Of a stretch of DNA of 25,077 nt, positions 1 to 23,333 are shown in pieces. The stretch's first letter is position 1, and each line of letters begins with the position of its first letter. A program made the translations under genes and the position numbers. Under the pieces are notes generated by a model, which saw nothing but the letters and a program-made list of their open reading frames with translations, did no database searches and had not been told where the DNA came from. The stretch is from a virus. Where the stretch lies: UHGV virus genome UHGV-0139735; one strand, 5' to 3'.

Positions 1-49
1 TTAGCAAGACTGTGTACATTTGTACACAATTGCAGAGAGAGGAAATGAC

Positions 50-586
50 ATGCGTCGCGCTAACGATCCGCAACGGCGAGAAAAAATTATCCAGGCCACG
101 CTGGAGGCGGTGAAACTTTACGGAATACATGCTGTTACACACCGCAAAATTGCTGCCCTTGCCGGGGTGCCGTTGGGATCGATGACCTACTATTTTTCAG
201 GAATTGATGAGTTGTTGCTGGAGGCGTTCAGCCGTTTTACTGAGATCATGTCCCGGCAATATCAGGCATTTTTTAGCGATGTTAGTGATGCTCCAGGCGC
301 ATGCCAGGCTATCACCGATATGATCTACAGCTCACAGGTCGCAACGCCGGATAATATGGAGCTGATGTACCAGCTCTACGCGCTGGCTAGCCGAAAACCG
401 CTCTTAAAAACGGTAATGCAAAACTGGATGCAGCGCAGTCAACAAACGCTCGAACAATGGTTTGAACCCGGAACCGCCCGCGCGCTTGATGCGTTTATTG
501 AGGGGATGACGCTGCATTTTGTCACCGACCGTAAGCCGCTATCACGCGAGGAGATTTTGAGGATGGTTGAGAGGATTGCTGGGTAG
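50..586 (+). CDS. rcdA: TetR-family transcriptional regulator (host gene, RcdA/YbjK-like)
   Basis: From the ATG at 50 the product is 178 aa beginning [40 protein letters not shown], an N-terminal HTH typical of TetR regulators. The length and N-terminus match my recollection of E. coli RcdA. The ORF-track start at 20 is probably an upstream extension. Confidence 0.6.
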
Positions 587-602
587 TAGATAAATTTCAG
601 GC

Positions 603-631
603 AACAAAAAACCCATTTATGTAAATGGGTT
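603..631 (-). terminator. Rho-independent terminator hairpin (10-bp perfect stem, T-run on the minus strand)
   Basis: aacccattta-tg-taaatgggtt at 610-631, preceded on the plus strand by an A-run (606-609) that is the U-tract for minus-strand transcripts. It lies downstream of the minus-strand ORF 737-1006 and may also stop the plus-strand regulator gene. Confidence 0.55.
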
Positions 632-636
632 AATGG

Positions 637-667
637 AAACAATAAGTTAGAGTAAAAACAATAAGTT
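637..667. repeat. 12-bp perfect direct repeat aaacaataagtt at 637-648 and 656-667
   Basis: Read directly from the sequence in the intergenic region at the host/prophage junction. Possible recombinase arm-type or IHF-type site; function unknown. Confidence 0.3.
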
Positions 668-736
668 GGGTTGGTGGTCAGTGGTGGTTATTACGGGGTA
701 ATGCCAACCGCTGCCGCCACTTTGTCGCCACTTGTT

Positions 737-1006
737 TTACCTTAGACGCCATGGGCCCCTATCTTCAATCTGTTCGACTAACCCCTCCTCTTCTAGTTCA
801 CGCAATAGTGCAACAACCCAATATTGTTGGTTCGAACTTGTGGCTTTCCGTTTTTCTCCCCAATCGAGGCCGCTTAGACGAAATACCTCAGCTTGCTTAA
901 CGCCGTTGCCGTTTTTTTGGGCATCTGGGTGAGTTTTAAGTACGGATAAAGCCAATTCTTTGGCTCTGTTACGCAATTCCGCTCCCTGATGCTGAAACTT
1001 ATTCAT
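737..1006 (-). CDS. Hypothetical 89-aa protein at the prophage/host junction
   Basis: Intact ORF with a downstream terminator (603-631). No family recognised by eye. Unclear whether it belongs to the host, the prophage or a remnant of an earlier element. Confidence 0.45.
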   Translation of the reverse strand: MNKFQHQGAELRNRAKELALSVLKTHPDAQKNGNGVKQAEVFRLSGLDWGEKRKATSSNQQYWVVALLRELEEEGLVEQIEDRGPWRLR

Positions 1007-1064
1007 TGATAGTGCTCCATGTGAAAAAAAAGAATATTAGCTCAACAGGGCAAAATACGCATTT

Positions 1065-2096
1065 TCAAAAACTTGCTATTGATGTTGGTAGTGTTGCCAG
1101 CGGATTAAACCGTAATGCAGTTTCCAGGTGATCCGGTGCTAGATGTGCGTAACGCATAGTCATTTTTATGTCGTGATGTCCGAGGATTTTTTGCAAAGCA
1201 AGGATATTTCCACCCGACATCATAAAATGCGCCGCAAACGTATGGCGCAGAACGTGTGTCAGTTGACCGCGAGGGAGCACAATAGACGTTTTTTCCATCA
1301 CGGATAAAAATTGAAAATAGCAGTCTGTGAAGAAATTGAACCCATCGAGCGCCATGATCTCTTCGTAAAGCTCTTTACTGATAGGGATGCTTCTGTTTTT
1401 CTTCCCCTTCGTTCTGACAAAGGTAATTCGGTATTTGGTCACCTGTGAGCGGGTAAGATTTACGGCTTCACGCCAGCGTGCGCCTGTGCTTAAGCATATC
1501 TTAACTACCAGTGCCAGAATTGGGTCCTGACGTTTGCAATCAGCCAGCAATTCAACAATCTGCTCATGGGTAAGCCATGCCATCTCTTTTTCTGCGATGG
1601 TGAATTTTCGCATGTTCTCCAGTGGGTTCGGATACGACCATTCGCCCAGACGGGATAGTTCGCTAAAAACACTACTTAGATAGCTTTGCTCCAGGTTAAT
1701 GGTGACCGGGCTTGCTCCTTTCTTCCATTTCTCGCTGAAGTAGATCTCGCCTGTCAGGCGTTTATCTCGATAGTGGGCAAACATTTTAGAGGTGAGATCA
1801 GTTGCAAGGGGATTGCCCAGAGCGTCAACCATCAACAGCAGTTTGTCATAGACATGCTGCCCAGCTGTCAGAGATTTACCATGTAGTTTGAACCATAGCT
1901 CAATCACGTCTTTCAATGTCCGACGATCCACTGATTCGCCCAGCCAGGGCTTTGCTTCGGTTTCTTCCATCGTGTGACGCTCAAAAGCCAGAGCTTCGCC
2001 TTTGGTGGCGAATTGTTTACGCACACGACGTCCACTACGTCCGGCGGGGTAACATTCGCAAAGCCATTTTCCTGTGGTGAGTTTTCGTACTGCCAT
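1065..2096 (-). CDS. int: Tyrosine site-specific integrase (P2/186 Int family)
   Basis: 343-aa product starting MAVRKLTTGKWLCECYP, with the C-terminal catalytic box ...LRHTFAAHFMMSGGNILALQKILGHHDIKMTMRYAHL (R, HxxR and Y motifs). The ORF-track start at 2174 adds 26 unsupported residues. Position is next to the repressor as in P2/186. Confidence 0.9.
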   Translation of the reverse strand: MAVRKLTTGKWLCECYPAGRSGRRVRKQFATKGEALAFERHTMEETEAKPWLGESVDRRTLKDVIELWFKLHGKSLTAGQHVYDKLLLMVDALGNPLATDLTSKMFAHYRDKRLTGEIYFSEKWKKGASPVTINLEQSYLSSVFSELSRLGEWSYPNPLENMRKFTIAEKEMAWLTHEQIVELLADCKRQDPILALVVKICLSTGARWREAVNLTRSQVTKYRITFVRTKGKKNRSIPISKELYEEIMALDGFNFFTDCYFQFLSVMEKTSIVLPRGQLTHVLRHTFAAHFMMSGGNILALQKILGHHDIKMTMRYAHLAPDHLETALRFNPLATLPTSIASF

Positions 2097-2282
2097 AAAA
2101 AATGCCCTCCAGTAGAGAGCATTTTTACTGTATGTATAACCAGTGTCAATGTATGAAATCCTGCGACCATACATCTCACTGAAGCCATAATGAAGTTAGC
2201 TATTTTTTGCTATGTGAGTATGTGACTTTTGCGGTTAGCCTGCGGCTCATTGTTATATTAGGCGCAGATATAAAAGCAAAAT

Positions 2283-2474
2283 TTATCGCGAGTTTTTAGT
2301 ACAGATTTTTTTTGATTTACTAATAGTTCCATCATTGCAAACGAACTTTCCATCGGAGGTACAGTGAGAGACACCTCCCTTTTTCCCAGAACAAGGATAA
2401 TTTTTAGCATAGGTAGTTAGTGGATCTAATAACAAAGAGCATGATAAAACCACAAAAAATACCTTACCAAGCAT
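2283..2474 (-). CDS. Small secreted Cys-rich, Lys-rich peptide (63 aa); candidate lysogenic-conversion moron
   Basis: N-terminal hydrophobic signal-like segment ([23 protein letters not shown]) followed by a ~40-aa region with 4 Cys and many Lys. Strong SD (GGGAGGA) 5 nt upstream of the ATG and immediately after the repressor stop codon. The region 2200-2480 is AT-rich relative to the phage backbone. Confidence 0.55.
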
Positions 2475-2489
2475 AGTTTCCTCCCGGTA

Positions 2490-3065
2490 TTACCTAACGT
2501 ACTTAATTGTTAAACTTATAATTTTCCCAATTATTTCAACATCTTCTATCTTGCACTCGAAGGCTCTGTTTCCACCCTCGACGAAGATTCTTCCACCGGG
2601 TAAACGAGTAATGTCACGGATCGTTATTTCGCCATCAATACTTATTACCCATTTACCATCACGTATATCATCAAATTCCTTATCACAAATAAATTCAGAA
2701 TTATTATCTGTGATTACAAAAAGATTCTTGAATGCCGACGGTAGAAATTCTCTATCGAAAATATAAAAACCGTCTTCACACAAGGCCCCATCAGATAATA
2801 CATATTTAGCAACTTCCATAGTATTTGTATTACCTGAAGTTTGCTTTGAACCATGCCCGGTTGTGAGCCAATTAAGTGAGGTGCCTGTTTCAAGGGCGCA
2901 CTGGATTACCCATTCTGCTGGGAATGAGTCACGCATGTAGCGTGTGGCGAGTGTACTTTTAGAGATTCCTAAATGATCGCACAACGCCTGTCGAGTCTTG
3001 AATCCATAAGCTTCTACCATGCGCTCTATAGCGCCTCGTCCGCCTTTCTCCAAATTCATGGTCAC
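2490..3065 (-). CDS. cI: CI-type immunity repressor (186 CI-like: N-terminal HTH plus C-terminal oligomerisation domain)
   Basis: 191 aa with an N-terminal HTH (QALCDHLGISKSTLATRYMRD). Its size matches 186 CI (~192 aa) rather than P2 C (99 aa). It is divergent from the apl/cII operon and upstream of int. Confidence 0.8.
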   Translation of the reverse strand: MTMNLEKGGRGAIERMVEAYGFKTRQALCDHLGISKSTLATRYMRDSFPAEWVIQCALETGTSLNWLTTGHGSKQTSGNTNTMEVAKYVLSDGALCEDGFYIFDREFLPSAFKNLFVITDNNSEFICDKEFDDIRDGKWVISIDGEITIRDITRLPGGRIFVEGGNRAFECKIEDVEIIGKIISLTIKYVR

Positions 3066-3083
3066 TCCAAGTGAACTTTTATC

Positions 3084-3112
3084 TTGACGATTTCACTGTG
3101 CGATCGTATGTT
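3084..3112 (+). promoter_or_regulatory. Candidate early lytic promoter (pR-like): TTGACG, 17-bp spacer, TATGTT
   Basis: -35 TTGACG at 3084-3089 and -10 TATGTT at 3107-3112, lying between the divergent repressor and apl genes. Flanking inverted repeats (GTGAAC at 3071-3076 and GTTCAC at 3119-3124) are possible operator half-sites. Confidence 0.45.
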
Positions 3113-3184
3113 TATGGTGTTCACAAAATACAAACGATCCGTATTCGTCCTGATTAATCATCATTAAACGAGGAATGTTGCATC

Positions 3185-3406
3185 ATGAGACCTAACATTT
3201 CAATCACTCTTACCACGCCTCATGTGACTATTGAACGCTATAGCGAGCTGACAGGGCTATCCATCGATACCATCAATGACATGTTGGCTGATGGACGCCT
3301 TATCCGTCACCGTCTGCGCAAAGATAAAAAACGCGAAAAAGTGATGATCAACATAGCAGCAATGACCGTTGATGCGCTTTCAGAATGCAATCTAAACCTT
3401 AATTAG
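3185..3406 (+). CDS. apl: Apl/Cox-type excisionase and switch regulator
   Basis: 73-aa HTH protein ([26 protein letters not shown]) as the first gene of the rightward early operon, divergent from the repressor. RBS AGGAA upstream. Confidence 0.75.
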
Positions 3407-3432
3407 TTCGATTCTGAAATACATCAGAGGCA

Positions 3433-3948
3433 TTGACCATGTTTGATTACCAAGTTTCCAAACATCCACATTTTGATGAAGCCTGTCGTGCATTCGCATT
3501 GCGCCACAACCTGGTGCAACTGGCAGAACGTGCTGGCATGAATGTGCAGATTCTGCGGAACAAGTTGAACCCAGCTCAACCTCATTTATTAACCGCACCA
3601 GAAATCTGGCTGCTTACCGATCTGACTGAAGATTCAACGCTGGTAGATGGTTTTCTGGCTCAGATTCACTGCCTGCCATGCGTACCGATTAATGAGGTGG
3701 CAAAAGAGAAACTGCCACATTACGTCATGAGTGCAACCGCAGAGATCGGGCGTGTTGCTGCAGGTGCGGTATCTGGCGATGTAAAAACCAGTGCAGGTCG
3801 TCGTGATGCTATCAGCAGCATTAACTCTGTAACACGACTGATGGCGTTGGCTGCTGTTTCATTGCAGGCCCGTTTACAGGCTAACCCTGCGATGGCGAGT
3901 GCAGTTGATACCGTGACTGGCCTCGGTGCTTCATTCGGTTTGCTGTGA
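3433..3948 (+). CDS. cII: CII-like lysogeny-establishment regulator (186 CII-like)
   Basis: 171 aa (186 CII is ~169 aa) with an N-terminal HTH-like region, directly downstream of apl as in 186. Confidence 0.7.
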
Positions 3949-3955
3949 GGTGCTT

Positions 3956-4156
3956 ATGCTGACGAAAGAACCATCATTTGCATCGCTGCTGGTAAAGCAA
4001 AGCCCGGCAATGCACTACGGTCACGGCTGGATCATGGGTGAGGATGGAAAACGCTGGCATCCGTGCCGTTCACAAGATGAATTGCTGGCAGAACTATCTA
4101 CGAAAAAACGGGGGAACAAATGGCTATTGAAGGCGCTGCGGCGACTGTTCCATTAA
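3956..4156 (+). CDS. Hypothetical early protein (66 aa)
   Basis: ATG at 3956 preceded by GAGGTG; in the early operon between cII and A. The ORF-track start at 3926 overlaps cII. Confidence 0.5.
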   Translation: MLTKEPSFASLLVKQSPAMHYGHGWIMGEDGKRWHPCRSQDELLAELSTKKRGNKWLLKALRRLFH

Positions 4157-4461
4157 GACCCGGTGAACGCCTGAATGGACTTAATCATATTGCGGAGTTA
4201 AGGGCGAAAGTTTTTGGTTTGAATATTGAGTCAGAGCTTGAGCGGTTTATTAAAGATATGCGTGATCCACGGGATATCAATAATGAACAAAATAAACGGG
4301 CACTGGCTGCCATATTCTTTATGGCAAAAATTCCAGCTGAACGTCATAGCATCAGCATTAATGAGCTGACCACTGACGAAAAGCGGGAGTTGATTAAAGC
4401 AATGAATCATTTTCGTGCAGTGGTGAGCTTATTTCCCAGACGGCTAACCATGCCGAATTAA
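4120..4461 (+). CDS. Hypothetical early protein (113 aa)
   Basis: ATG at 4120 preceded by GGGGGAA. Overlaps the previous ORF by 37 nt. Confidence 0.55.
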   Translation: MAIEGAAATVPLRPGERLNGLNHIAELRAKVFGLNIESELERFIKDMRDPRDINNEQNKRALAAIFFMAKIPAERHSISINELTTDEKRELIKAMNHFRAVVSLFPRRLTMPN

Positions 4462-4528
4462 CCAACTAATGAAATTAATGGCGTAAACCCGCCGGGCATC
4501 CCTTTATCTAAATTCAGGAGAATTGCTT

Positions 4529-5840: not shown

Positions 5841-6667
5841 AAGAAATGCACCACGGAATTCATCATTTCCATGGGACGCCTGTCTGGGGAAGTGCTGGCG
5901 ACGTTCATCGTATTGCGGTGAGCGGAGCTGGCGCTTTCGTCTCCTATGTACGACCAGATCAGATTGCGGCGTCCATTCAGCACGCTCAGGTCGTCGGCAT
6001 TGATAACGGCGCATTTTCTGCATGGGTGCGTGGGCTAAAAATTAACTGGAGTGATTTTTATAAATGGCTCCTGAACTATTACCACCATCCTAAGGTCGCT
6101 TTTTTTGTCATTCCTGATGTTGTGGACGGAGGTGAACGTGACAATGATGCCCTGATAAACGAAGTTCCGAAAATGTTCTACGGGAAGGCAACTCCCGTCT
6201 GGCATCTGCACGAGTCAATCGATCGGCTTATCGAGCTATGTCGTGAATGGCCTCGTGTCTGCTTTGGATCGTCTGGTGAATATGCGGCTATCAGAACTGC
6301 GCACTGGCATCGTCGTATGCAGGACGCTTTTGAAGCAATTTATTGCCGACACAATTTCAAAACAGCTGTTCATGGTTTGCGCATGCTTGACGGTCGTGTG
6401 TTGGGAAATTACCCACTGGCGACTGCCGACAGTACAAATCTTGCCTGCAATGTCCCCAAATTTAATAGCAAATATCCTGAGCTGACGCGGGCTATTCAGG
6501 AGGCTGAGTATTCGCGCAATCTGACGGAAAAGGAGCTGAAAGCTGTCATTCTGAAAAACCGTTGCGCAATTTTAAAAGGTGCAATTGAAGCTGTTCGCCC
6601 ACCTTCAGTTTCTGATTGGCTGTCGAATGGTTTGCAGCCTTCACAGCTCGAACTGGAGATTGCGTAA
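5837..6667 (+). CDS. Hypothetical protein (~276 aa) translationally coupled to the methyltransferase; possible DNA-modification enzyme (weak, unverified TGT/DpdA-like motifs)
   Basis: GTG at 5837 overlaps the Dam stop; an alternative ATG lies at 5846. Contains [12 protein letters not shown], which resembles the DSGGF active-site strand of tRNA-guanine transglycosylases; this is eye-level similarity only. Confidence 0.5.
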
Positions 6668-9009
6668 TGAACTACAGCTATTCCTGGAATGCTGAGAAAA
6701 AAGCAATCAATCCTTACGTAGAGACGGAAGAGCAATCTTCAGTTTCTGCGCTTTCAAACCTGATCGCTCTGTACGCTGCCGATAACGAGCAGGAACAGCT
6801 GCGCCGCGAGGCACTGAGTGATCAGGTCTGGGAGCGTTATTTCTTTAATGAATCCCGTGATCCTGTCCAGCGCGAAATGGAGCAGGATAAGCTCATTAGT
6901 CGGGCAAAGCTGGCGCATGAGCAGCAGCGTTTTAATCCAGATATGGTCATTCTGGCGGACGTTAATGCCCAGCCTTCCCATATCAGCAAGCCACTGATGC
7001 AACGTATTGAATACTTCAGCAGCCTGGGCAGGCCAAAGGCTTATTCCCGCTATTTGCGTGAGACGATTAAGCCATGTCTGGAACGGCTGGAGCATGTACG
7101 CGACTGTCAGCTATCCACTTCTTTTCGCTTTATGGCAAGCCATGAAGGGCTGGACGGCCTGCTGATCCTGCCTGAAATGAGTCAGGATCAGGTGAAACGC
7201 CTGTCCACCCTGGTAGCTGCGCATATGAGCATGTGCCTTGATGCAGCTTGTGGCGATTTGTATGTCACCGATGACGTTAAGCCAGAAGAAATCCGCAAGA
7301 CATGGGAAAAGGTGGCAGCGGAAACCCTGCGTCTGGATGTCATCCCGCCTGCGTTTGAGCAACTCCGCCGGAAAAGAAACCGCCGTAAACCCGTGCCCTA
7401 TGAACTCATTCCGGGTTCGCTGGCGCGTATGTTGTGCGCTGACTGGTGGTACCGGAAATTATGGAAGATGCGTTGCGAATGGCGGGAAGAGCAGTTGCGT
7501 GCTGTCTGCCTGGTCAGCAAAAAAGCATCTCCCTATGTCAGCTATGAAGCCGTGATGCATAAACGTGAGCAGCGCCGTAAGTCGCTGGAGTTTTTTCGTT
7601 CTCATGAACTGGTGAACGAAGACGGCGACACGCTGGACATGGAGGATGTGGTAAACGCCAGCAGCAGCAACCCTGCGCATCGCCGCAATGAGATGATGGC
7701 CTGTGTTAAAGGCCTGGAGCTTATCGCGGAAATGCGCGGTGACTGCGCCGTTTTCTACACCATCACCTGTCCGTCACGTTTCCATTCCACGCTAAATAAT
7801 GGCAGGCCCAACCCAACTTGGACAAATGCGACGGTAAGACAAAGCAGTGATTATCTGGTCGGCATGTTTGCTGCATTTCGTAAGGCGATGCACAAAGCCG
7901 GATTGCGGTGGTATGGCGTGCGGGTGGCTGAGCCGCATCATGACGGTACAGTTCACTGGCACCTGTTGTGTTTTATGCGCAAAAAAGACCGCCGCGCCAT
8001 CACTGCATTACTGCGTAAGTTTGCCATCCGTGAAGACCGCGAGGAACTGGGCAATAACACTGGGCCGCGCTTTAAGTCTGAGTTGATTAACCCGCGCAAA
8101 GGTACGCCAACAAGCTACATCGCGAAATACATCAGTAAGAACATTGACGGGCGTGGTCTGGCTGGCGAGATCAGCAAGGAAACGGGGAAATCCCTGCGTG
8201 ATAATGCTGAATACGTTAATGCCTGGGCGTCTCTGCATCGTGTTCAGCAATTCCGCTTCTTTGGCATTCCGGGGCGTCAGGCTTACCGTGAACTGCGATT
8301 GCTGGCTGGTCAGGCGGCAAGGCAACAGGGGGACAAAAAAGCAGGTGCGCCGGTACTGGATAACCCGCGCCTTGATGCCATCCTGGCTGCTGCTGATGCT
8401 GGTTGTTTTGCCACCTACATCATGAAGCAGGGCGGCGTACTGGTTCCCCGCAAATATCACCTCATCAGAACCGCTTATGAAATCAACGAAGAGCCGACCG
8501 CCTATGGCGATCACGGCATTCGTATTTATGGCATCTGGTCACCTATTGCAGAGGGCAAGATCTGCACTCATGCCGTGAAGTGGAAAATGGTTCGTAAGGC
8601 CGTTGATGTTCAGGAGGCGGCAGCCGACCAGGGCGCTTGCGCCCCTTGGACTCGTGGCAATAACTGTCCCCCTGTTGAAAATTTGAACCAATCAGGGGGC
8701 GATTTACCAGAAGCCAGTGGGCCGGAGTCGCTGCCGGATCTTCATAATCTGAGCGCGAAGGAACGACGGGAGCTGACGGCGCGGCTGAGATTGGTAAAAC
8801 CTAAGCGGCGGAAAGGGTACAAACAGCAGATTAGCAATCATCAGCGCCAGCAGCTTGATGCTGAACTGAGGTCTAGGGGGTTCGATGCGAGTGATACCGA
8901 GGTGGATCTGCTTTTGCGTGGTGGCAGTATCCCGTCCGGGGCCGGGCTGCGTTTGTTCTATCGAAACCAGCGCCTGCAGGAAGATGATAAATGGCGGCAG
9001 TGGTACTAA
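6667..9009 (+). CDS. A: Rolling-circle replication initiator, P2 gpA family (HUH endonuclease)
   Basis: HUH motif ([10 protein letters not shown]) and two-tyrosine motif ([10 protein letters not shown]) as in P2 A protein. ATG at 6667 overlaps the upstream stop (TAATG); the ORF-track start at 6616 is possible but less likely. Confidence 0.85.
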
Positions 9010-9080: not shown

Positions 9081-9539
9081 CTATTTAGTTTTTTCAATCA
9101 TAGTGCTTTCGGCTTTTGAATATACACTATTAATAGTGGTGATTTTTGTAGTTAATGCTATACAAACTAGACTCAGAAGTAAGACACCAATTGATATTGT
9201 ATTGTTGCTGAGTATTATATGTAGACAAATAGAATAAATTGCAACGATGACTATTGCTACGAAAACAAAGATTGCCATTAAATTATGTGCTTTGATGTAG
9301 TCCTCAGGGGTTAATATGTAGCTTATGTTTATGATTATAAATAAAATTAAAAATGCTCCCCCAATCCATTTGGGTAGGGCTGTTTCTTTTTTTGATACTG
9401 CAGGTGTGGTTCTTGGGATCGATTCTACGAAGGATTTAAGATTTCCCATGTCAGTATTGTTTAATGCTGCACTTTCTGCTTCGAATTTTGAAACAGTGCC
9501 ATCAGGAAGGGTTGTAGTCCAGCTTATTTTTCCTGTCAT
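9081..9539 (-). CDS. Small integral membrane protein (152 aa: ~55-aa soluble N-terminus plus three predicted TM helices); cargo gene
   Basis: Hydrophobic segments WIGGAFLILFIIINISYIL, LMAIFVFVAIVIVAIYSICLHIIL and ISIGVLLLSLVCIALTT. Its start overlaps the upstream stop (ATGA). Strongly AT-rich versus the backbone. Confidence 0.65.
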   Translation of the reverse strand: MTGKISWTTTLPDGTVSKFEAESAALNNTDMGNLKSFVESIPRTTPAVSKKETALPKWIGGAFLILFIIINISYILTPEDYIKAHNLMAIFVFVAIVIVAIYSICLHIILSNNTISIGVLLLSLVCIALTTKITTINSVYSKAESTMIEKTK

Positions 9540-9910
9540 ACAACATCCCTTATTCTGAATATTCTATTAAAATCAATATCAACAGCAGAGTTCGACCACT
9601 CACTCTTTTGATTATCTTTAATTAGAATTGCTTTGTTCTCGTCAAAGATTATATTTGTACCACTAAACTCAATATGAGATAGGTCTCCTCTAAATATTTT
9701 TTGCTCAACGCTTTTGAATGCATCTTTTAATGATGCACACTCTTTTCTGAATAATGGTTTGGGGCTGTAAGTCCCTAAGTTTATAACTATTACGCCACTA
9801 CCATCTTTAGCAGGGTGAATGGAGAAAGATAGCGCTAATCCGTGATAGTGGGATTGTATTTTCTTCATTAATTTACGAACGTAATCATCATACCGCTTTC
9901 TATATATCAT
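9536..9910 (-). CDS. Hypothetical soluble protein (124 aa); first gene of the two-gene cargo operon
   Basis: Intact AT-rich ORF translationally coupled to the membrane-protein gene. No family recognised by eye. Confidence 0.6.
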   Translation of the reverse strand: MIYRKRYDDYVRKLMKKIQSHYHGLALSFSIHPAKDGSGVIVINLGTYSPKPLFRKECASLKDAFKSVEQKIFRGDLSHIEFSGTNIIFDENKAILIKDNQKSEWSNSAVDIDFNRIFRIRDVV

Positions 9911-10837: not shown

Positions 10838-10968
10838 CGCGCGCTGGGAGGTATAAGAATGAAGTACAATTAACTTCACTTTGTTGAGTAAAATGCTATA
10901 AGAATAATGCAAATTATTGAGTCCCATTAGTTCAAAACTTAGGGATATCTTATGTGAAAGGAGGTTAT

Positions 10969-12654
10969 ATGTTAGATAAATTGATTTTTAATTCAGGAAG
11001 TAATCCAACATCTAAATCTTCATTATCGGTTGACTTGACTCCATTGACAATTTTTGTGGGGCCGAATAATAGTGGTAAATCTAGAGCTTTAATCGATATA
11101 GAAAATCAACTGACAACCCGAAATGCAGCGCAGGGAGAAGTAATAAAACAGATATTAATCAAACCACTTTCTGAGGATGAAGCAAAAAAGGAAATTGAAT
11201 CTTTACAAGTTGAGCCAAACCAGGATGAAAAGCATGCGGGGCATGTTGTTTTATCTAGGCTAAACCTCCGTGGTGAAGGAATATCTAGGATTCTAGTGTA
11301 TTTGGATGGAATGTTAAGAGAATTCCAGCAACCCAATGAATTAAATCGGGAGCATCTATATCAATATTACTCGTTGCTGACTCTAAGGTTGGATGGTAGA
11401 AGTCGACTTTCCTTAACTTCAAGTCAAGGTTCATCCGATTTACAAGGAGAACCTACGAATAACCTTTCATTTCTTTTTAAAAATAATAAAGCAAGGATGG
11501 AGCTAAGAGATATCGTTTTTGATGCTTTCGGGAAGTATCTTGTTATTGATCCAACAAATATAGGTTATCTTAGAATTCGTCTTTCTGAGCGCGCTCCTGA
11601 GACTGAACAAGAAGAAAGAGGTTGGGATGAAAAGTCAGTGCTTTTTCATTCAAAAGCGTCATTGATTACAGAGGCTAGCGATGGTGTTAATGCTTTTGTT
11701 GGGATGATGATTTCGCTGATAGTTGGCTCACCAAAGGTGACTCTAATTGATGAGCCGGAAGCTTTTTTACATCCATCCTTATGCTCAAAGTTAGGAAAGG
11801 AAATATCTAGGATTAGTGCTCATAGTAATAAAAATGTGTTTATTTCAACGCATAGCGCTAATTTTTTAATGGGTTGTGTTCAAGGTAAAGTGCCATTGAA
11901 TATAGTTAGGCTTACTTTTGATGGTAAATCTGGTACGTCTAGATTACTAACAAAGGAACAATTGACGCCGCTCATGAGAAATCCGTTATTAAGATCTATT
12001 GGTGTGCTAAACGCATTGTTTTATAATTACGTTGTCGTTACTGAAGCGGATGCAGATAGGGCATTTTATCAAGAGATTAATGAGCGCTTATTGGCTGCTG
12101 GAGATCCTCGGGGTATTGAGGGATGCCTGTTTTTGAATGCTCAAAACAAACAAACTGTTTGGGATATAGTAAAACCCCTTCGTGAGCTAGGTATTCCCTG
12201 CGTTGGAGTGGTAGATATCGATATATTGAAGGAGGGAGGAGTTGTATGGAAAAAACCAATGCTTGGAGCTTTTTTTCCAGAAATGAAGCATGAAACTTTA
12301 GGTTTGGAAAGACAAAAGCTTTTTCAAGCCTTCAAAAATACGAATAAAAATATGAAGACAGATGGGGGCCTCTCCTTGTTATCGGGTTCAGATAAAACCG
12401 CCTGCTCTGAGTTTTTTAAATCCCTTTCAGATTATGGGGTTTTTGTCGTTCCAACGGGCGAGATCGAGTCTTGGTTGCAAAATCTTGAAATAGGTCGAGG
12501 AAAGAATACTTGGTTAACAAGTATTTTCGAGAAGATGGGGGATGATCCTAATGATGAATCATATGTGAAGCCATCTGAAGGTGATGTTTGGGATTTTATT
12601 GGGAATATAAAGCACTGGTTGGTTAACCCTGAAAGGAAGGGTATTCCCGAGTGA
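10969..12654 (+). CDS. OLD-family ABC-type ATPase with C-terminal TOPRIM nuclease domain (P2 Old-like anti-phage defence protein)
   Basis: 561 aa from the ATG at 10969 (RBS AAAGGAGG). Walker A GPNNSGKS, Walker B/D-loop VTLIDEPEAFLHPS, H-loop ISTHSAN, and C-terminal Toprim-like acidic motifs VVVTEADAD and VGVVDID. AT-rich relative to the backbone. Confidence 0.7.
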   Translation: MLDKLIFNSGSNPTSKSSLSVDLTPLTIFVGPNNSGKSRALIDIENQLTTRNAAQGEVIKQILIKPLSEDEAKKEIESLQVEPNQDEKHAGHVVLSRLNLRGEGISRILVYLDGMLREFQQPNELNREHLYQYYSLLTLRLDGRSRLSLTSSQGSSDLQGEPTNNLSFLFKNNKARMELRDIVFDAFGKYLVIDPTNIGYLRIRLSERAPETEQEERGWDEKSVLFHSKASLITEASDGVNAFVGMMISLIVGSPKVTLIDEPEAFLHPSLCSKLGKEISRISAHSNKNVFISTHSANFLMGCVQGKVPLNIVRLTFDGKSGTSRLLTKEQLTPLMRNPLLRSIGVLNALFYNYVVVTEADADRAFYQEINERLLAAGDPRGIEGCLFLNAQNKQTVWDIVKPLRELGIPCVGVVDIDILKEGGVVWKKPMLGAFFPEMKHETLGLERQKLFQAFKNTNKNMKTDGGLSLLSGSDKTACSEFFKSLSDYGVFVVPTGEIESWLQNLEIGRGKNTWLTSIFEKMGDDPNDESYVKPSEGDVWDFIGNIKHWLVNPERKGIPE

Positions 12655-12690: not shown

Positions 12691-13722
12691 CTATGCAAGG
12701 TTATATTCATTAAATTGCATTATTGGCTCCTTTATCCATTCATTTACTTCTTGAAGCCTTTTTTGCAATGGAATTAGCTCATTACGGACAAAGACCCTGC
12801 TGGCTTTCTCCACATCCCCAAATCCCCCGACATTATTTGGCATTATCCCCATCATTTGTGGCGGCACACGATGCGCAGCCATCATGTCATCCCGGCTCAC
12901 GTTCTTGATATTCAGAAACTCATCCTTCGCCGCGACTTCTGACAACGGGATGATCTGAAGCCCGTCCTTTTTGCCGTTAGGCGAGTACATAAACAGGTTG
13001 CGGAAGTTGCCAGGGCCTTTGGCGCTTTTCATCGCATTGCGGAGGTTGTTCACATCCTCCTGGTTCTGCGCGGCATCGGTCATGTACATGATGAAGCCTG
13101 CATGACTGCCGTTAATGTAATACTTCCGGCGGAACAGCGTGGCGGACTCGTTGAGCAGGGCCGACGGAATGGCAGAAAGATAACCTGGCAGGCCGTAGAT
13201 CTCCTGGTTGATGTCAGGTTCCATCAGATGAAAAATGCTGCCTTTCGTGAACTGATACGGCTGGGTTGTCATACCGTATTGCACAAACCAGTAGGTATCC
13301 AGGTCTAACCCGCGTCGGGTGTATTTTGCCAGCGCAGGCTCAAGGGCTATAACTTCACCGAATCGGTTCGTGCGTTTCTCCAGGTAGGCGTTACCAAATA
13401 CCAGATAGTCCTGCACAAAACGCGAAAAAGCCTGTTGGCTGAGCAGCGGATGAGGGATATAGGTACTGGTCAGAATGTTGCACTTTACTGCAATCGGGGA
13501 ACTGTGATGCACGGCAGCCCGGAAGGTGCGCGCCAGTCCGTCAAAACTTACGGGTGGCTCATACCAGCGATCCGTCTGTACGCATTCCACATAGTCCAGC
13601 AGTTCGCGGCGGTCCAGTACAGGAATGGGATCACCAAAGCTGAAAGCTTCGGCTGAAGTTTGATTTTTATGCTGGCTCCGTTTCGTCGCAGCAGCGCGGT
13701 TTTTCTTACTCTTTCCCATCAA
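12691..13722 (-). CDS. Q: Portal protein (P2 gpQ)
   Basis: 343 aa (P2 Q is ~344 aa), located downstream of and overlapping the terminase ATPase gene, in P2 order. Confidence 0.85.
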   Translation of the reverse strand: MMGKSKKNRAAATKRSQHKNQTSAEAFSFGDPIPVLDRRELLDYVECVQTDRWYEPPVSFDGLARTFRAAVHHSSPIAVKCNILTSTYIPHPLLSQQAFSRFVQDYLVFGNAYLEKRTNRFGEVIALEPALAKYTRRGLDLDTYWFVQYGMTTQPYQFTKGSIFHLMEPDINQEIYGLPGYLSAIPSALLNESATLFRRKYYINGSHAGFIMYMTDAAQNQEDVNNLRNAMKSAKGPGNFRNLFMYSPNGKKDGLQIIPLSEVAAKDEFLNIKNVSRDDMMAAHRVPPQMMGIMPNNVGGFGDVEKASRVFVRNELIPLQKRLQEVNEWIKEPIMQFNEYNLA

Positions 13723-20996: not shown

Positions 20997-21435
20997 ACTG
21001 CAGAAGGTGGACGACTGGCTGAGTGCTTTGCTGGCGAATCTGGAACCAGCCGCAAGAAGCCGCATGATGCGCCAGCTGGCGCAGGAACTGCGCCGGACAC
21101 AGCAGCAGAATATCAGAATGCAGCGCAATCCAGATGGCAGCAGTTATGAACCTCGACGGGTAACAGCACGCAGTAAAAAGGGGCGCATCAAACGTCAGAT
21201 GTTTGCAAAGCTGCGCACCGCAAAATACCTGAAAACTGCCGCCAGCGCCGATTCTGCCAGCGTGCAGTTTGAAGGTAAGGTGCAGCGTATTGCCCGCGTT
21301 CACCATTACGGCCTGCGTGATCGCGTCAGTCGCAAAGGACCTGAGGTCCGTTACGCAGAGCGTCGTCTTCTGGGCGTAAATGATGATGTTGAGGCAATGA
21401 CCCGCGACATGATTCTGCAATGGCTGGCGGGGTGA
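20989..21435 (+). CDS. S: Tail completion protein S
   Basis: 148 aa with a GTG start overlapping the R stop, in P2 order. Confidence 0.75.
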   Translation: MAELQKVDDWLSALLANLEPAARSRMMRQLAQELRRTQQQNIRMQRNPDGSSYEPRRVTARSKKGRIKRQMFAKLRTAKYLKTAASADSASVQFEGKVQRIARVHHYGLRDRVSRKGPEVRYAERRLLGVNDDVEAMTRDMILQWLAG

Positions 21436-21439
21436 TCTT

Positions 21440-21457
21440 TGTATCAGCACTGATACA
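21440..21457 (+). promoter_or_regulatory. Late promoter P_V activator site (TGT-N12-ACA within a 9-bp perfect palindrome)
   Basis: tTGTATCAG-ca-CTGATACAa at 21439-21458, in the S-V intergenic region upstream of V. Confidence 0.6.
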
Positions 21458-21503
21458 AGTTGCAGCACTGCCGCCTTTCTTCCCCTGATGGCAACCTTTC
21501 CCT

Positions 21504-22082
21504 ATGAACGCACAATTAACCGAAATCATGCGCCTTATCACCAACCTGATCCGCACTGGGGTAGTCACCGAAGTGGACCGGGAAAACTGGCTTTGTCGGG
21601 TGAAAACGGGCGATCTTGAAACCAACTGGATTAACTGGCTGACGCTGCGCGCGGGTAATGCCCGCACATGGTGGAAACCATCGGAAGGTGAGCAGGTGGT
21701 GCTGCTGAGTCTGGGCGGCAATCTGGAGACCGCCTTTGCGCTGCCCGCTGTGTATTCGAATCAGTTCGCACCACCGTCGATGTCGGCGGACGCCTGCGTG
21801 ACAGAACATCCTGACGGTGGCTGGTTTGAATACGAACCCGCCACCGGGCGCTGGTATGTCAGGGGCATCAAATCAATGGTCATTGAGGCCGCTGACAACA
21901 TCACCCTGAAAACCAGTGAGTTTGTACTGGAGGCTGACCGCACGCGCATTAACAGCGAAGTGGTGATCAATGGTGGCGTTACCCAGGGCGGCGGAGCGAT
22001 GAGTTCTAACGGGATCGTGGTTGATGCGCATCAGCATACTGGCGTCCTGAAAGGCGGCGACACAACCGGAGGCCCGGTATGA
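21504..22082 (+). CDS. V: Baseplate assembly protein V (spike)
   Basis: 192 aa, first gene after the P_V-like promoter, in P2 order. Confidence 0.8.
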   Translation: MNAQLTEIMRLITNLIRTGVVTEVDRENWLCRVKTGDLETNWINWLTLRAGNARTWWKPSEGEQVVLLSLGGNLETAFALPAVYSNQFAPPSMSADACVTEHPDGGWFEYEPATGRWYVRGIKSMVIEAADNITLKTSEFVLEADRTRINSEVVINGGVTQGGGAMSSNGIVVDAHQHTGVLKGGDTTGGPV

Positions 22083-22438
22083 CGCTTTATAGCGGGATGA
22101 ACAATACCAGCGGTAAAGCCATTACTGATATTGACCATCTGCGCCAGTCGGTGCGGGATATTCTGCTGACGCCGCAGGGTAGCCGCATTGCCCGTCGGGA
22201 ATATGGTTCCCTGCTGTCGGCACTGATTGATCAGCCACAAAATCCGGCGTTACGCCTGCAGGTTATGTCGGCTGTGTATGTGGCACTGAGTCGCTGGGAG
22301 CCACGGCTGACGCTGGATTCCATCACTATTAACAGCAATTTTGACGGTTCAATGGTGGTGGAGCTGACCGGGCGGCGGAATAACGGTGTGCCTGTGTCCC
22401 TTTCAGTATCAACAGGAGCAGAGAATGGCAGTGATTGA
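22079..22438 (+). CDS. W: Baseplate wedge protein W (GPW/gp25 family)
   Basis: 119 aa; the ATGA overlap with V is typical. Confidence 0.8.
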   Translation: MTLYSGMNNTSGKAITDIDHLRQSVRDILLTPQGSRIARREYGSLLSALIDQPQNPALRLQVMSAVYVALSRWEPRLTLDSITINSNFDGSMVVELTGRRNNGVPVSLSVSTGAENGSD

Positions 22439-23333
22439 CCTTTCGCAGTTGCCTGCACCGCAGATTGTGGATGTGCCGGACTTTGAGACGCTGCTTGCCG
22501 AACGCAAGGCAGAATTTGTGGCGCTTCATCCGAAAGATGAGCAGGAAGCAGTGATCCGCACGCTGGAACTGGAGTCTGAACCCGTCACCAAATTGTTGCA
22601 GGAGAATGCTTACCGTGAGTTGCTTCTGCGCCAGCGCATTAACGAAGCCGCGCAGGCGGTGATGGTGGCTTACGCGATGGGCGGCGATCTTGACCAGCTC
22701 GCTGCCAACTACAACGTGAAACGCCTGACGGTGACGCCTGCTGATAATGACGCTGTGCCGCCCGTTGCAGCAGTGATGGAAAGCGATGAAGCGTTACGCC
22801 TGCGTGTGCCTGCAGCCTTTGAGGGGCTTTCAGTTGCGGGGCCAACTGCAGCTTATGAATTTCATGCCCGAAGCGCCGACGGTCGGGTGGCGGATGCCAG
22901 TGCAACCAGCCCGGCACCTGCAGAGGTGGTGCTGACTGTCCTTAGCCGCGAAGGCGATGGAACTGCAGAAAAAGACCTGCTGGACGTGGTGGAAAAAGCT
23001 CTGAACAGTGAGAACGTCCGCCCGGTGGCTGACCGTCTGACGGTTCGCAGCGCAGAAATCATCCCGTATCGCGTGGAAGCCACCATTTTTCTCTATCCGG
23101 GACCGGAAGCAGAGCCGGTAATGGCAGCGGCAAAAGCCAGCCTGCAGAGGTACATTGCCAGTCAGACGCGGCTTGGCCGGGATATTCGCCGTAGCGCCAT
23201 TTTTGCCGCGCTGCATGTTGAGGGTGTTCAGCGTGTGGAACTGGCTTCCCCGCTGGCGGATGTGGTCCTGAACAAAACGCAGGCGGCATCATGTACGCAG
23301 TGGAGCGTGACCAACGGGGGAACGGATGAATAG
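22425..23333 (+). CDS. J: Baseplate assembly protein J
   Basis: 302 aa from the ATG at 22425 (RBS AGGAG), the same length as P2 J. Confidence 0.8.
   Translation: MAVIDLSQLPAPQIVDVPDFETLLAERKAEFVALHPKDEQEAVIRTLELESEPVTKLLQENAYRELLLRQRINEAAQAVMVAYAMGGDLDQLAANYNVKRLTVTPADNDAVPPVAAVMESDEALRLRVPAAFEGLSVAGPTAAYEFHARSADGRVADASATSPAPAEVVLTVLSREGDGTAEKDLLDVVEKALNSENVRPVADRLTVRSAEIIPYRVEATIFLYPGPEAEPVMAAAKASLQRYIASQTRLGRDIRRSAIFAALHVEGVQRVELASPLADVVLNKTQAASCTQWSVTNGGTDE

Follow-up and report, generated by a model that had tools for sequence, protein, structure and literature searches.

The window (the whole stretch of DNA that was analysed, 25,077 nucleotides of the virus genome UHGV-0139735) begins in the host gene rcdA and continues with a 186-like prophage. 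The gene order after rcdA is a small ORF (737-1006), int, a ydcA-like ORF and cI; beyond cI, and on the opposite strand, lie an apl/cox-like gene, cII, fil and further early genes. The ydcA-like coding sequence, which is the subject of this study, occupies positions 2283..2474 on the minus strand. It starts with ATG and encodes 63 amino acids followed by a stop codon, and its product is identical to the RefSeq entry WP_001321204.1, "YdcA family protein". In agreement with the initial annotation of this DNA, which had been made from the sequence alone, the ORF is located between the repressor and integrase genes. These are a gene for a 186-type CI immunity repressor (2490..3065, minus strand; Pfam Phage_CI_repr, 2.8e-33, and Phage_CI_C, 8.7e-27) and a RefSeq CDS for a P2/186-type tyrosine integrase (1065..2096, minus strand; Pfam Int_N, 3e-32, and Phage_integrase, 8.5e-22).

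On the minus strand, the TAA stop codon of cI (2490-2492) is followed by TACCGGGAGGAAACT and then by the ATG of the ydcA-like gene. This gap of 15 nt holds a GGGAGG Shine-Dalgarno (SD) sequence (2480..2485, minus strand), read from the sequence, that is placed 5 nt upstream of the ATG; the strong SD that had been noticed directly after the repressor stop codon is thus indeed present, and the same GGGAGG is also kept in locus L011. The gap is without a promoter, and the sole terminator-like hairpin is found 157 nt downstream, at the start of int. With a strong SD inside the 15-nt gap to cI, the placement and spacing of the ydcA-like gene fit co-transcription and translation with the repressor gene. 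According to this model, the gene would be transcribed together with cI from the lysogenic promoter and would be translated from its own strong SD, so that the protein would be made in the lysogen.

The terminator-like hairpin (2097..2126, minus strand) was obtained by RNA folding of the region 2085-2290 (minus strand), where it forms a 13-bp stem (segment z = -3.5) that can be written as AAAAAUGCUCUCU-ACU-GGAGGGCAUUUUU; a simple scan for terminators had not picked it up. It is located directly before the int ATG, includes the SD of int, is flanked by A and U runs, and is part of an int module that is common to the phages 813R9 and 4LV2017 (see below). It resembles an intrinsic terminator or attenuator, which would split cI-ydcA transcription from int and mask the translation of int. 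A search of positions 1-4500 of the window against Rfam gave no match.

The segment had also been described as AT-rich, and this holds: the GC content of the ORF is 34.9%, versus 50.7% for the window, 40.5% for cI, 47.4% for int and 37.6% for the stretch 2097-2282. The AT-rich block extends beyond the ORF, spanning roughly positions 2100-2900 and taking in the 3' half of cI. Because the block extends into cI, low GC content is a trait of the whole immunity module, beyond the small ORF. Between positions 2500 and 2900 of the window the GC content is 33-38%, and this interval reaches well into the C-terminal half of cI.

Some other genes of the prophage were inspected as well. The small ORF located between the attachment site and int (737-1006, minus strand) encodes 89 amino acids and is annotated by RefSeq as hypothetical; no Pfam, NCBIfam, PHROG or PADLOC match was obtained for it. 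Orf69 of phage 186 occupies an equivalent place and was considered as a possible relative, but the two share no similarity, and the prophage of BL21 carries a different ORF at this position. Further downstream, positions 10954-12654 (plus strand) encode a 566-aa OLD-family nuclease with AAA_15/AAA_21 ATPase and OLD-like TOPRIM domains. This gene lies between a 797-aa ORF (6616-9009) and large minus-strand ORFs starting at 12691, and two uncharacterised ORFs (9081-9539 and 9536-9910, minus strand) are located beside it. Going by the gene order of P2, this would be the usual old/tin cargo position.

A small, predicted exported protein of the YdcA family

The two protein features reported initially, a signal-peptide-like N-terminus and a basic region of about 40 residues with four cysteines, were both recovered in our analysis. 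Residues 1-23, encoded by positions 2406..2474 (minus strand), are predicted from hydropathy and from the alignment of homologues to constitute a signal peptide, which contains a basic residue (K4), a hydrophobic core (Kyte-Doolittle 9-mer means of 1.9-2.7, residues 1-9) and a T-Y-A/K site. Ala23 (position -1) does not vary among the homologues (25-30 aligned sequences), whereas the N-terminal region varies freely. Cleavage by SPase I after Ala23 is predicted from this alignment together with the hydropathy profile, and the protein would then be exported by the Sec pathway. The mature domain of 40 amino acids (2286..2405, minus strand) contains the four conserved cysteines C28, C38, C46 and C58, as well as eight lysines and one arginine, and has a computed pI of 9.64 and a computed net charge of +6.8; a fifth cysteine, C12, lies inside the signal peptide. 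In the periplasm, two disulfides may staple this basic domain. The residues that are invariant or nearly so in the homologue alignment are P27, C28, S29, G30, K31, K32, G33, G34, V35, H37, C38 and F44 in the first part of the domain, and C46, D48, G49, S52, S54, K55 and C58 in the second. In the AF2 model, the core has a pLDDT of about 85-90 and contains a beta-hairpin.

Several profile matches place the protein in the YdcA family. It scored 114.6 bits against NCBIfam NF007463 (PRK10040 group, PRK10040.1-2), for which the curated cutoff is 93, and the match spans residues 5-63 and profile positions 1-58 of 58. It also matched phrog_6000 (E 1.3e-33), and PF27300 is among the precomputed annotations of its homologues. 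Every invariant column of the core motif of the family, PCSGxKGG[IV]xxC...F[VI]CxDG[ST]xSxSKxxC, is present in the window protein, and so, judging from the alignment and hydropathy, is the signal peptide with a small residue at -1 that is another family trait. A copy of Pfam that predates PF27300 gave no significant match (the best was GULLO2-like, E 0.068), and the match to NCBIfam lpg1681_fam was not significant either (E 0.12). The family is large: an exhaustive profile search yielded 444 clusters at 50% identity, and a word-indexed search yielded 798 clusters at 90% identity. Among species-representative genomes, at least 226 stretches from Alpha-, Beta- and Gammaproteobacteria contain relatives, and so do at least 535 viral contigs.

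The protein shares about 51% identity, and all conserved motifs, with YdcA of E. coli K-12 (b1419, 57 aa), and the two are also alike in size, in having a signal peptide and in the four-Cys motif. Orthology was considered and rejected, because the window protein scored 68.2 bits against NF007462 (PRK10040.1-1), which has a cutoff of 118, and because its locus is a prophage and not cybB-rydC. Thus, going by profile scores and gene position, the prophage protein is a paralogue of K-12 YdcA and not its orthologue: whereas K-12 YdcA is encoded at the chromosomal cybB-rydC-ydcA locus, the prophage copy is located in the lysogenic operon. [quoted passage not shown] In E. coli W, deletion of ydcA causes sensitivity to 300 mM 3-hydroxypropionate, and the same paper reports that ydcA is acid-induced under YdcI (PMC7642389). 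In our searches of the literature for the accessions, "YdcA family", PF27300 and PRK10040 no functional study was found, and the ydcA-like gene was not covered in a paper on Salmonella lysogeny transcriptomics. The name "ydcA" is also used in the gonococcal genetic island and on F and ColV plasmids, where we take it to be a positional label and not an indication of homology. The family had been named and the gene annotated by RefSeq; what is new is the description of this member.

Conservation of the gene was analysed on a set of 83 full-length, ungapped copies among related loci, which represent 12 DNA variants and all have an intact frame. Compared with the window, the most frequent variant has 14 nucleotide differences, 12 of them at third codon positions, which results in 11 synonymous and two non-synonymous codons. 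In all 12 variants residues 25-63 are identical and residue 24 is only K or R (K24R), and the changes in the signal peptide are limited to V5I and to D17 being replaced by N or S. An intact copy is also found beside a cI whose DNA is only about 86% identical. Among 5,426 complete E. coli genomes, 654 (12%), including BL21, contain the ydcA-like gene and 648 contain this type of cI, which shows that the two travel together. The P2-like prophage of BL21 (L171, NZ_CP053601.1 841871-847446) is decayed, in that cII and the replication endonuclease gene are pseudogenes; int, the ydcA-like gene (HO397_RS04110) and cI are intact in it and encode proteins identical to those of the window. From these comparisons, the ydcA-like ORF is a genuine gene on which purifying selection acts strongly. 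A chance ORF or a purely non-coding spacer is ruled out by the same data.

The cI-int junction as a cargo position

The initial annotation stated that the ORF has no counterpart in the canonical P2/186 immunity region, and comparison with related phages agrees with this. In phage 186, cI (22433-23011) abuts int (21423-22433) with nothing in between, and in ESSI2_ev129 the position between cI and int is likewise empty. Using tblastn, a ydcA-like homologue was not found in any enterobacterial phage record. The ydcA-like gene is an accessory insertion that is absent from 186 and P2.

Other relatives carry different genes at this position. The integrases of Escherichia phage vB_EcoM-813R9 and Klebsiella phage 4LV2017 are 95-96% identical to that of the window at the DNA level, and both phages have other cargo in the slot. 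In 813R9, which is also integrated at rcdA, the slot contains a gene for a 558-aa PD-Lambda-1 defence protein (PADLOC E 3e-120), and in 4LV2017 it contains a gene for a 349-aa protein without family matches. The slot gene of 813R9 (L007 1791-3467, plus strand) is annotated as "chromosome segregation ATPase", and its product has T5orf172/MUG113 and DUF4041 domains. Homology of the window to 4LV2017 and 813R9 ends at about 2154-2156, which indicates an inserted cassette of about 2157-2489 whose 3' untranslated part (2157..2282, minus strand) is AT-rich. The initial annotation had proposed to compare related prophages for presence or absence of the gene; as these have either nothing or other cargo at the cI-int junction, this junction is a variable cargo slot.

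The same arrangement is found outside E. coli. In three Yersinia prophages (L014, L015 and L033) the order is likewise cI, ydcA-like gene, int, although their cI is only distantly related. Haemophilus phage HP2 has a YdcA-family ORF for a 60-aa homologue, unannotated in GenBank, whose ATG overlaps the cI stop codon (L002 2920-3102, plus strand, which corresponds to about 2486-2668, minus strand, of NC_003315.1), and Haemophilus phage S2 has the same 60-aa ORF. Since the cI protein matches five Haemophilus phage records and the homologue is found in only three, presence of the gene varies there too. The product of the next HP2 gene, orf1(S), is exported and has a tRNA_anti-like OB-fold (PF12869, E 2.8e-13). 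As far as gene order in these sequences can tell, a place right behind the repressor gene is fixed in P2/186/HP-type lysogenic operons of three bacterial families.

Phages of Moraxella, Acinetobacter and Pseudomonas have further homologues, as do 58 plasmid records. One of these plasmids, pApiMCR53a of Acinetobacter pittii, is a MOBQ plasmid of 3916 bp with just five genes, one of which encodes a 58-aa member and is located directly after a traD-like gene (L172 728-904, plus strand). Among 150 flanking ORFs in 78 diverse genomes, no conserved partner of the stand-alone members was found; their neighbours are heterogeneous, and the genomic context therefore gives no functional partner.

P2-like phages have cargo hotspots at the old/tin and Z/fun loci. 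The ydcA-like gene resembles the morons and hotspot cargo of these phages in its atypical composition and its variable presence, and in that its slot is filled by a defence gene (PD-Lambda-1) in 813R9. It may differ from a moron, which has its own promoter and terminator, in that it lies inside the lysogenic operon and appears to borrow the cI transcript. Taking together its position, its family and its conservation, we consider it fairly probable that the ORF works as a cargo gene of this 186-like prophage, whose integration site adjoins rcdA, and that it encodes a YdcA-family mini-protein.

Relatives of the domain and possible roles of the prophage protein

Long members of the family provide information on the company that the domain keeps. 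In 20 long members that were scanned, all recognisable enzymatic partner domains are secreted nucleases, and these belong to three unrelated folds: SNase (P0116), DNA/RNA non-specific endonuclease (P0180, P0193 and P0217) and PLD-like (P0208). A few other long members have only a small basic PBCV-adaptor-like tail. The endonuclease fusion is frequent and no artefact: the combination of PF27300 with PF01223 (Endonuclease_NS) was present in all of the best 120 matches to P0193, including matches in complete Methylobacter genomes, and tandem proteins with two or three YdcA-family domains exist as well. In the YdcA-domain nucleases (Endonuclease_NS, SNase and PLDc_2) the domain directly follows the signal peptide, as it does in the prophage protein, which in contrast consists of the domain alone and lacks the catalytic part. 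The core of about 31 residues is basic in 243 of 250 unique sequences, with a mean net charge of +3.6, and the C-terminal extensions are net positive in 69 of 86 cases. The fusions make up a minority of the family, and they could reflect localisation of the nucleases rather than DNA binding by the domain.

A second connection comes from structure and sequence comparison. When the AF2 model of the domain (pLDDT 78) was searched with Foldseek, the top match was chain AN of 7MUD/7MUC (prob 0.92, TM 0.59-0.62, 38-39% identity), and all other matches had a prob of 0.10 or less, so that this is the one solved structure with a resemblance to the domain. The same chain, which is Dis2, was also the best PDB match of the sequence profile of the domain (E 0.0024). 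In the profile alignment CSGkkGGIshC...FVCkDGsvS is paired with CCSKMGGINYC...LVCNNGFYS, Dis2 contains a second, weaker repeat, and a tandem family member aligns to Dis2 starting at its signal peptide. LDL-receptor Cys-rich repeats reach comparable E-values with the profile, which makes the sequence match borderline, and the link to Dis2 should be taken as probable and not as proven. With this proviso, homology of the domain to Dis2, as suggested by profile and model, is probable, and Dis2 appears to consist of two YdcA/PF27300-like domains.

[quoted passage not shown] It contacts DotK, DotC and DotD, its loss subtly lowers the translocation of some effectors, and it has no known contact with DNA (PMC12716638). 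DotK is OmpA-like, and DotC and DotD are lipoproteins. In Dis2 a signal peptide is directly followed by CCSKMGGINYC...VCNNGFYS, the lobes are stapled by disulfides, and the location is periplasmic, near the outer membrane; the prophage protein would be similar in signal peptide, motif and disulfide stapling. However, Dis2 has two lobes and is a stoichiometric T4SS subunit, whereas the prophage protein has one domain, and there are no T4SS genes in the window. A role of the prophage protein as a Dis2 subunit was rejected for these reasons, and the likeness applies at the level of the domain only.

Relatives of the protein are thus found on mobile elements, in secreted nucleases and, probably, in a secretion machine that belongs to the conjugation lineage, and this points to the envelope and to DNA traffic. 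Based on this, the YdcA domain might be an envelope module connected with DNA traffic, which would either bind DNA or another polyanion, or dock onto complexes close to the outer membrane. The copy on the prophage might then interfere with incoming DNA (superinfection or entry exclusion), which would benefit the lysogen. Superinfection exclusion, like a periplasmic effector, had been among the roles suggested in the initial annotation. That the prophage protein interferes at the envelope with incoming DNA is our leading hypothesis, and we propose it tentatively. Known exclusion proteins, such as Llp of T5, Cor of phi80/HK022, SieA of P22 and TrbK of RP4, are small, located in the envelope and expressed from the resident element, and they are often encoded near immunity or integration genes; most of those known are lipoproteins or membrane proteins. 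To our knowledge, the prophage protein has no sequence similarity to Llp, Cor, SieA or TrbK, and we know of no YdcA-family member for which an exclusion phenotype was shown. The PADLOC defence models gave no match for the ydcA-like protein, and the existence of a paralogue on the K-12 chromosome speaks against an inherently anti-phage family.

The main rival to this DNA-entry hypothesis is that the protein acts as a host-fitness factor for envelope or acid stress, doing what chromosomal YdcA does, so that the lysogen would better tolerate acids or organic acids, and having no role in the exclusion of phage or DNA. The sensitivity of the E. coli W deletion strain to 3-hydroxypropionate and the YdcI-dependent acid induction (PMC7642389) would be in line with this, as would the similarity to K-12 YdcA, with which all conserved motifs are common, and the retention of the gene in the decayed BL21 prophage. 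On the other hand, the deletion phenotype was reported in one study, which offers no mechanism, and such a role leaves unexplained why the gene is carried by phages and plasmids, why its position behind cI is fixed in three families, and why the domain is associated with nucleases and a T4SS. We therefore consider a pure host-fitness role rather unlikely, while giving it real weight.

A secreted cationic antimicrobial peptide, bacteriocin- or defensin-like and directed against competitors, could look much the same: a mature peptide of 40 amino acids with four cysteines and a net charge of about +7, preceded by a signal peptide. Moreover, a YdcA-family gene is among those unique to antimicrobial-positive Pseudomonas protegens strains in one comparative study (PMC13541209). 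However, a Sec signal takes the protein to the periplasm only, there is no adjacent exporter or immunity gene, and the family also comprises a harmless chromosomal gene of K-12, probably a structural subunit of a T4SS, and an N-terminal module of enzymes, so that we judge an antimicrobial function improbable.

Even less probable is that the protein is a lipoprotein, lipidated at Cys12 in the sequence VVLSC to give a membrane-anchored protein of 52 amino acids. V-L-S-C loosely resembles a lipobox, and one source calls a Yersinia homologue "Lipoprotein", but Cys12 is just 12 residues from the start, close homologues have LLIC, ILVC, LFVC or no Cys at this place, none of which fits a lipobox, and the Ala-X-Ala-type site at residue 23 is invariant. 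When the lipobox [LVI][ASTVI][GAS]C was used as a test, VLSC (residues 9-12) proved not to be conserved, and this reading was rejected.

Finally, the short frame and the AT-rich region might suggest that the ORF is spurious and that the segment serves the lysogenic operon as a regulatory, non-coding spacer, but the synonymous bias (12 of 14 substitutions at third positions), the invariant residues 25-63, the intact frame in 83 of 83 copies, the retention in BL21, the protein homologues in unrelated DNA across Alpha-, Beta- and Gammaproteobacteria, and the lack of an Rfam match effectively rule this out.

Going beyond the DNA-entry hypothesis for the prophage protein itself, it may be speculated that YdcA/PF27300 is a so far unrecognised extracytoplasmic module dedicated to DNA traffic through the Gram-negative envelope, which would bind DNA directly or dock onto translocation machines near the outer membrane, and that the stand-alone copy made along with the repressor by P2/186/HP-type prophages is a new kind of superinfection or DNA-entry exclusion factor; we consider this wider view doubtful. 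If true, it would provide the first function for E. coli YdcA, and would place Dis2, the "species-specific" T4SS subunit, within a family. Here, this uncharacterised and very common family becomes testable. Three handles that were absent from the literature searched are now available: the place behind cI, the nuclease fusions and the similarity to Dis2. Since BL21 carries an identical gene, the hypothesis that the protein may act at the level of the envelope on the entry of DNA is testable in a common laboratory strain.
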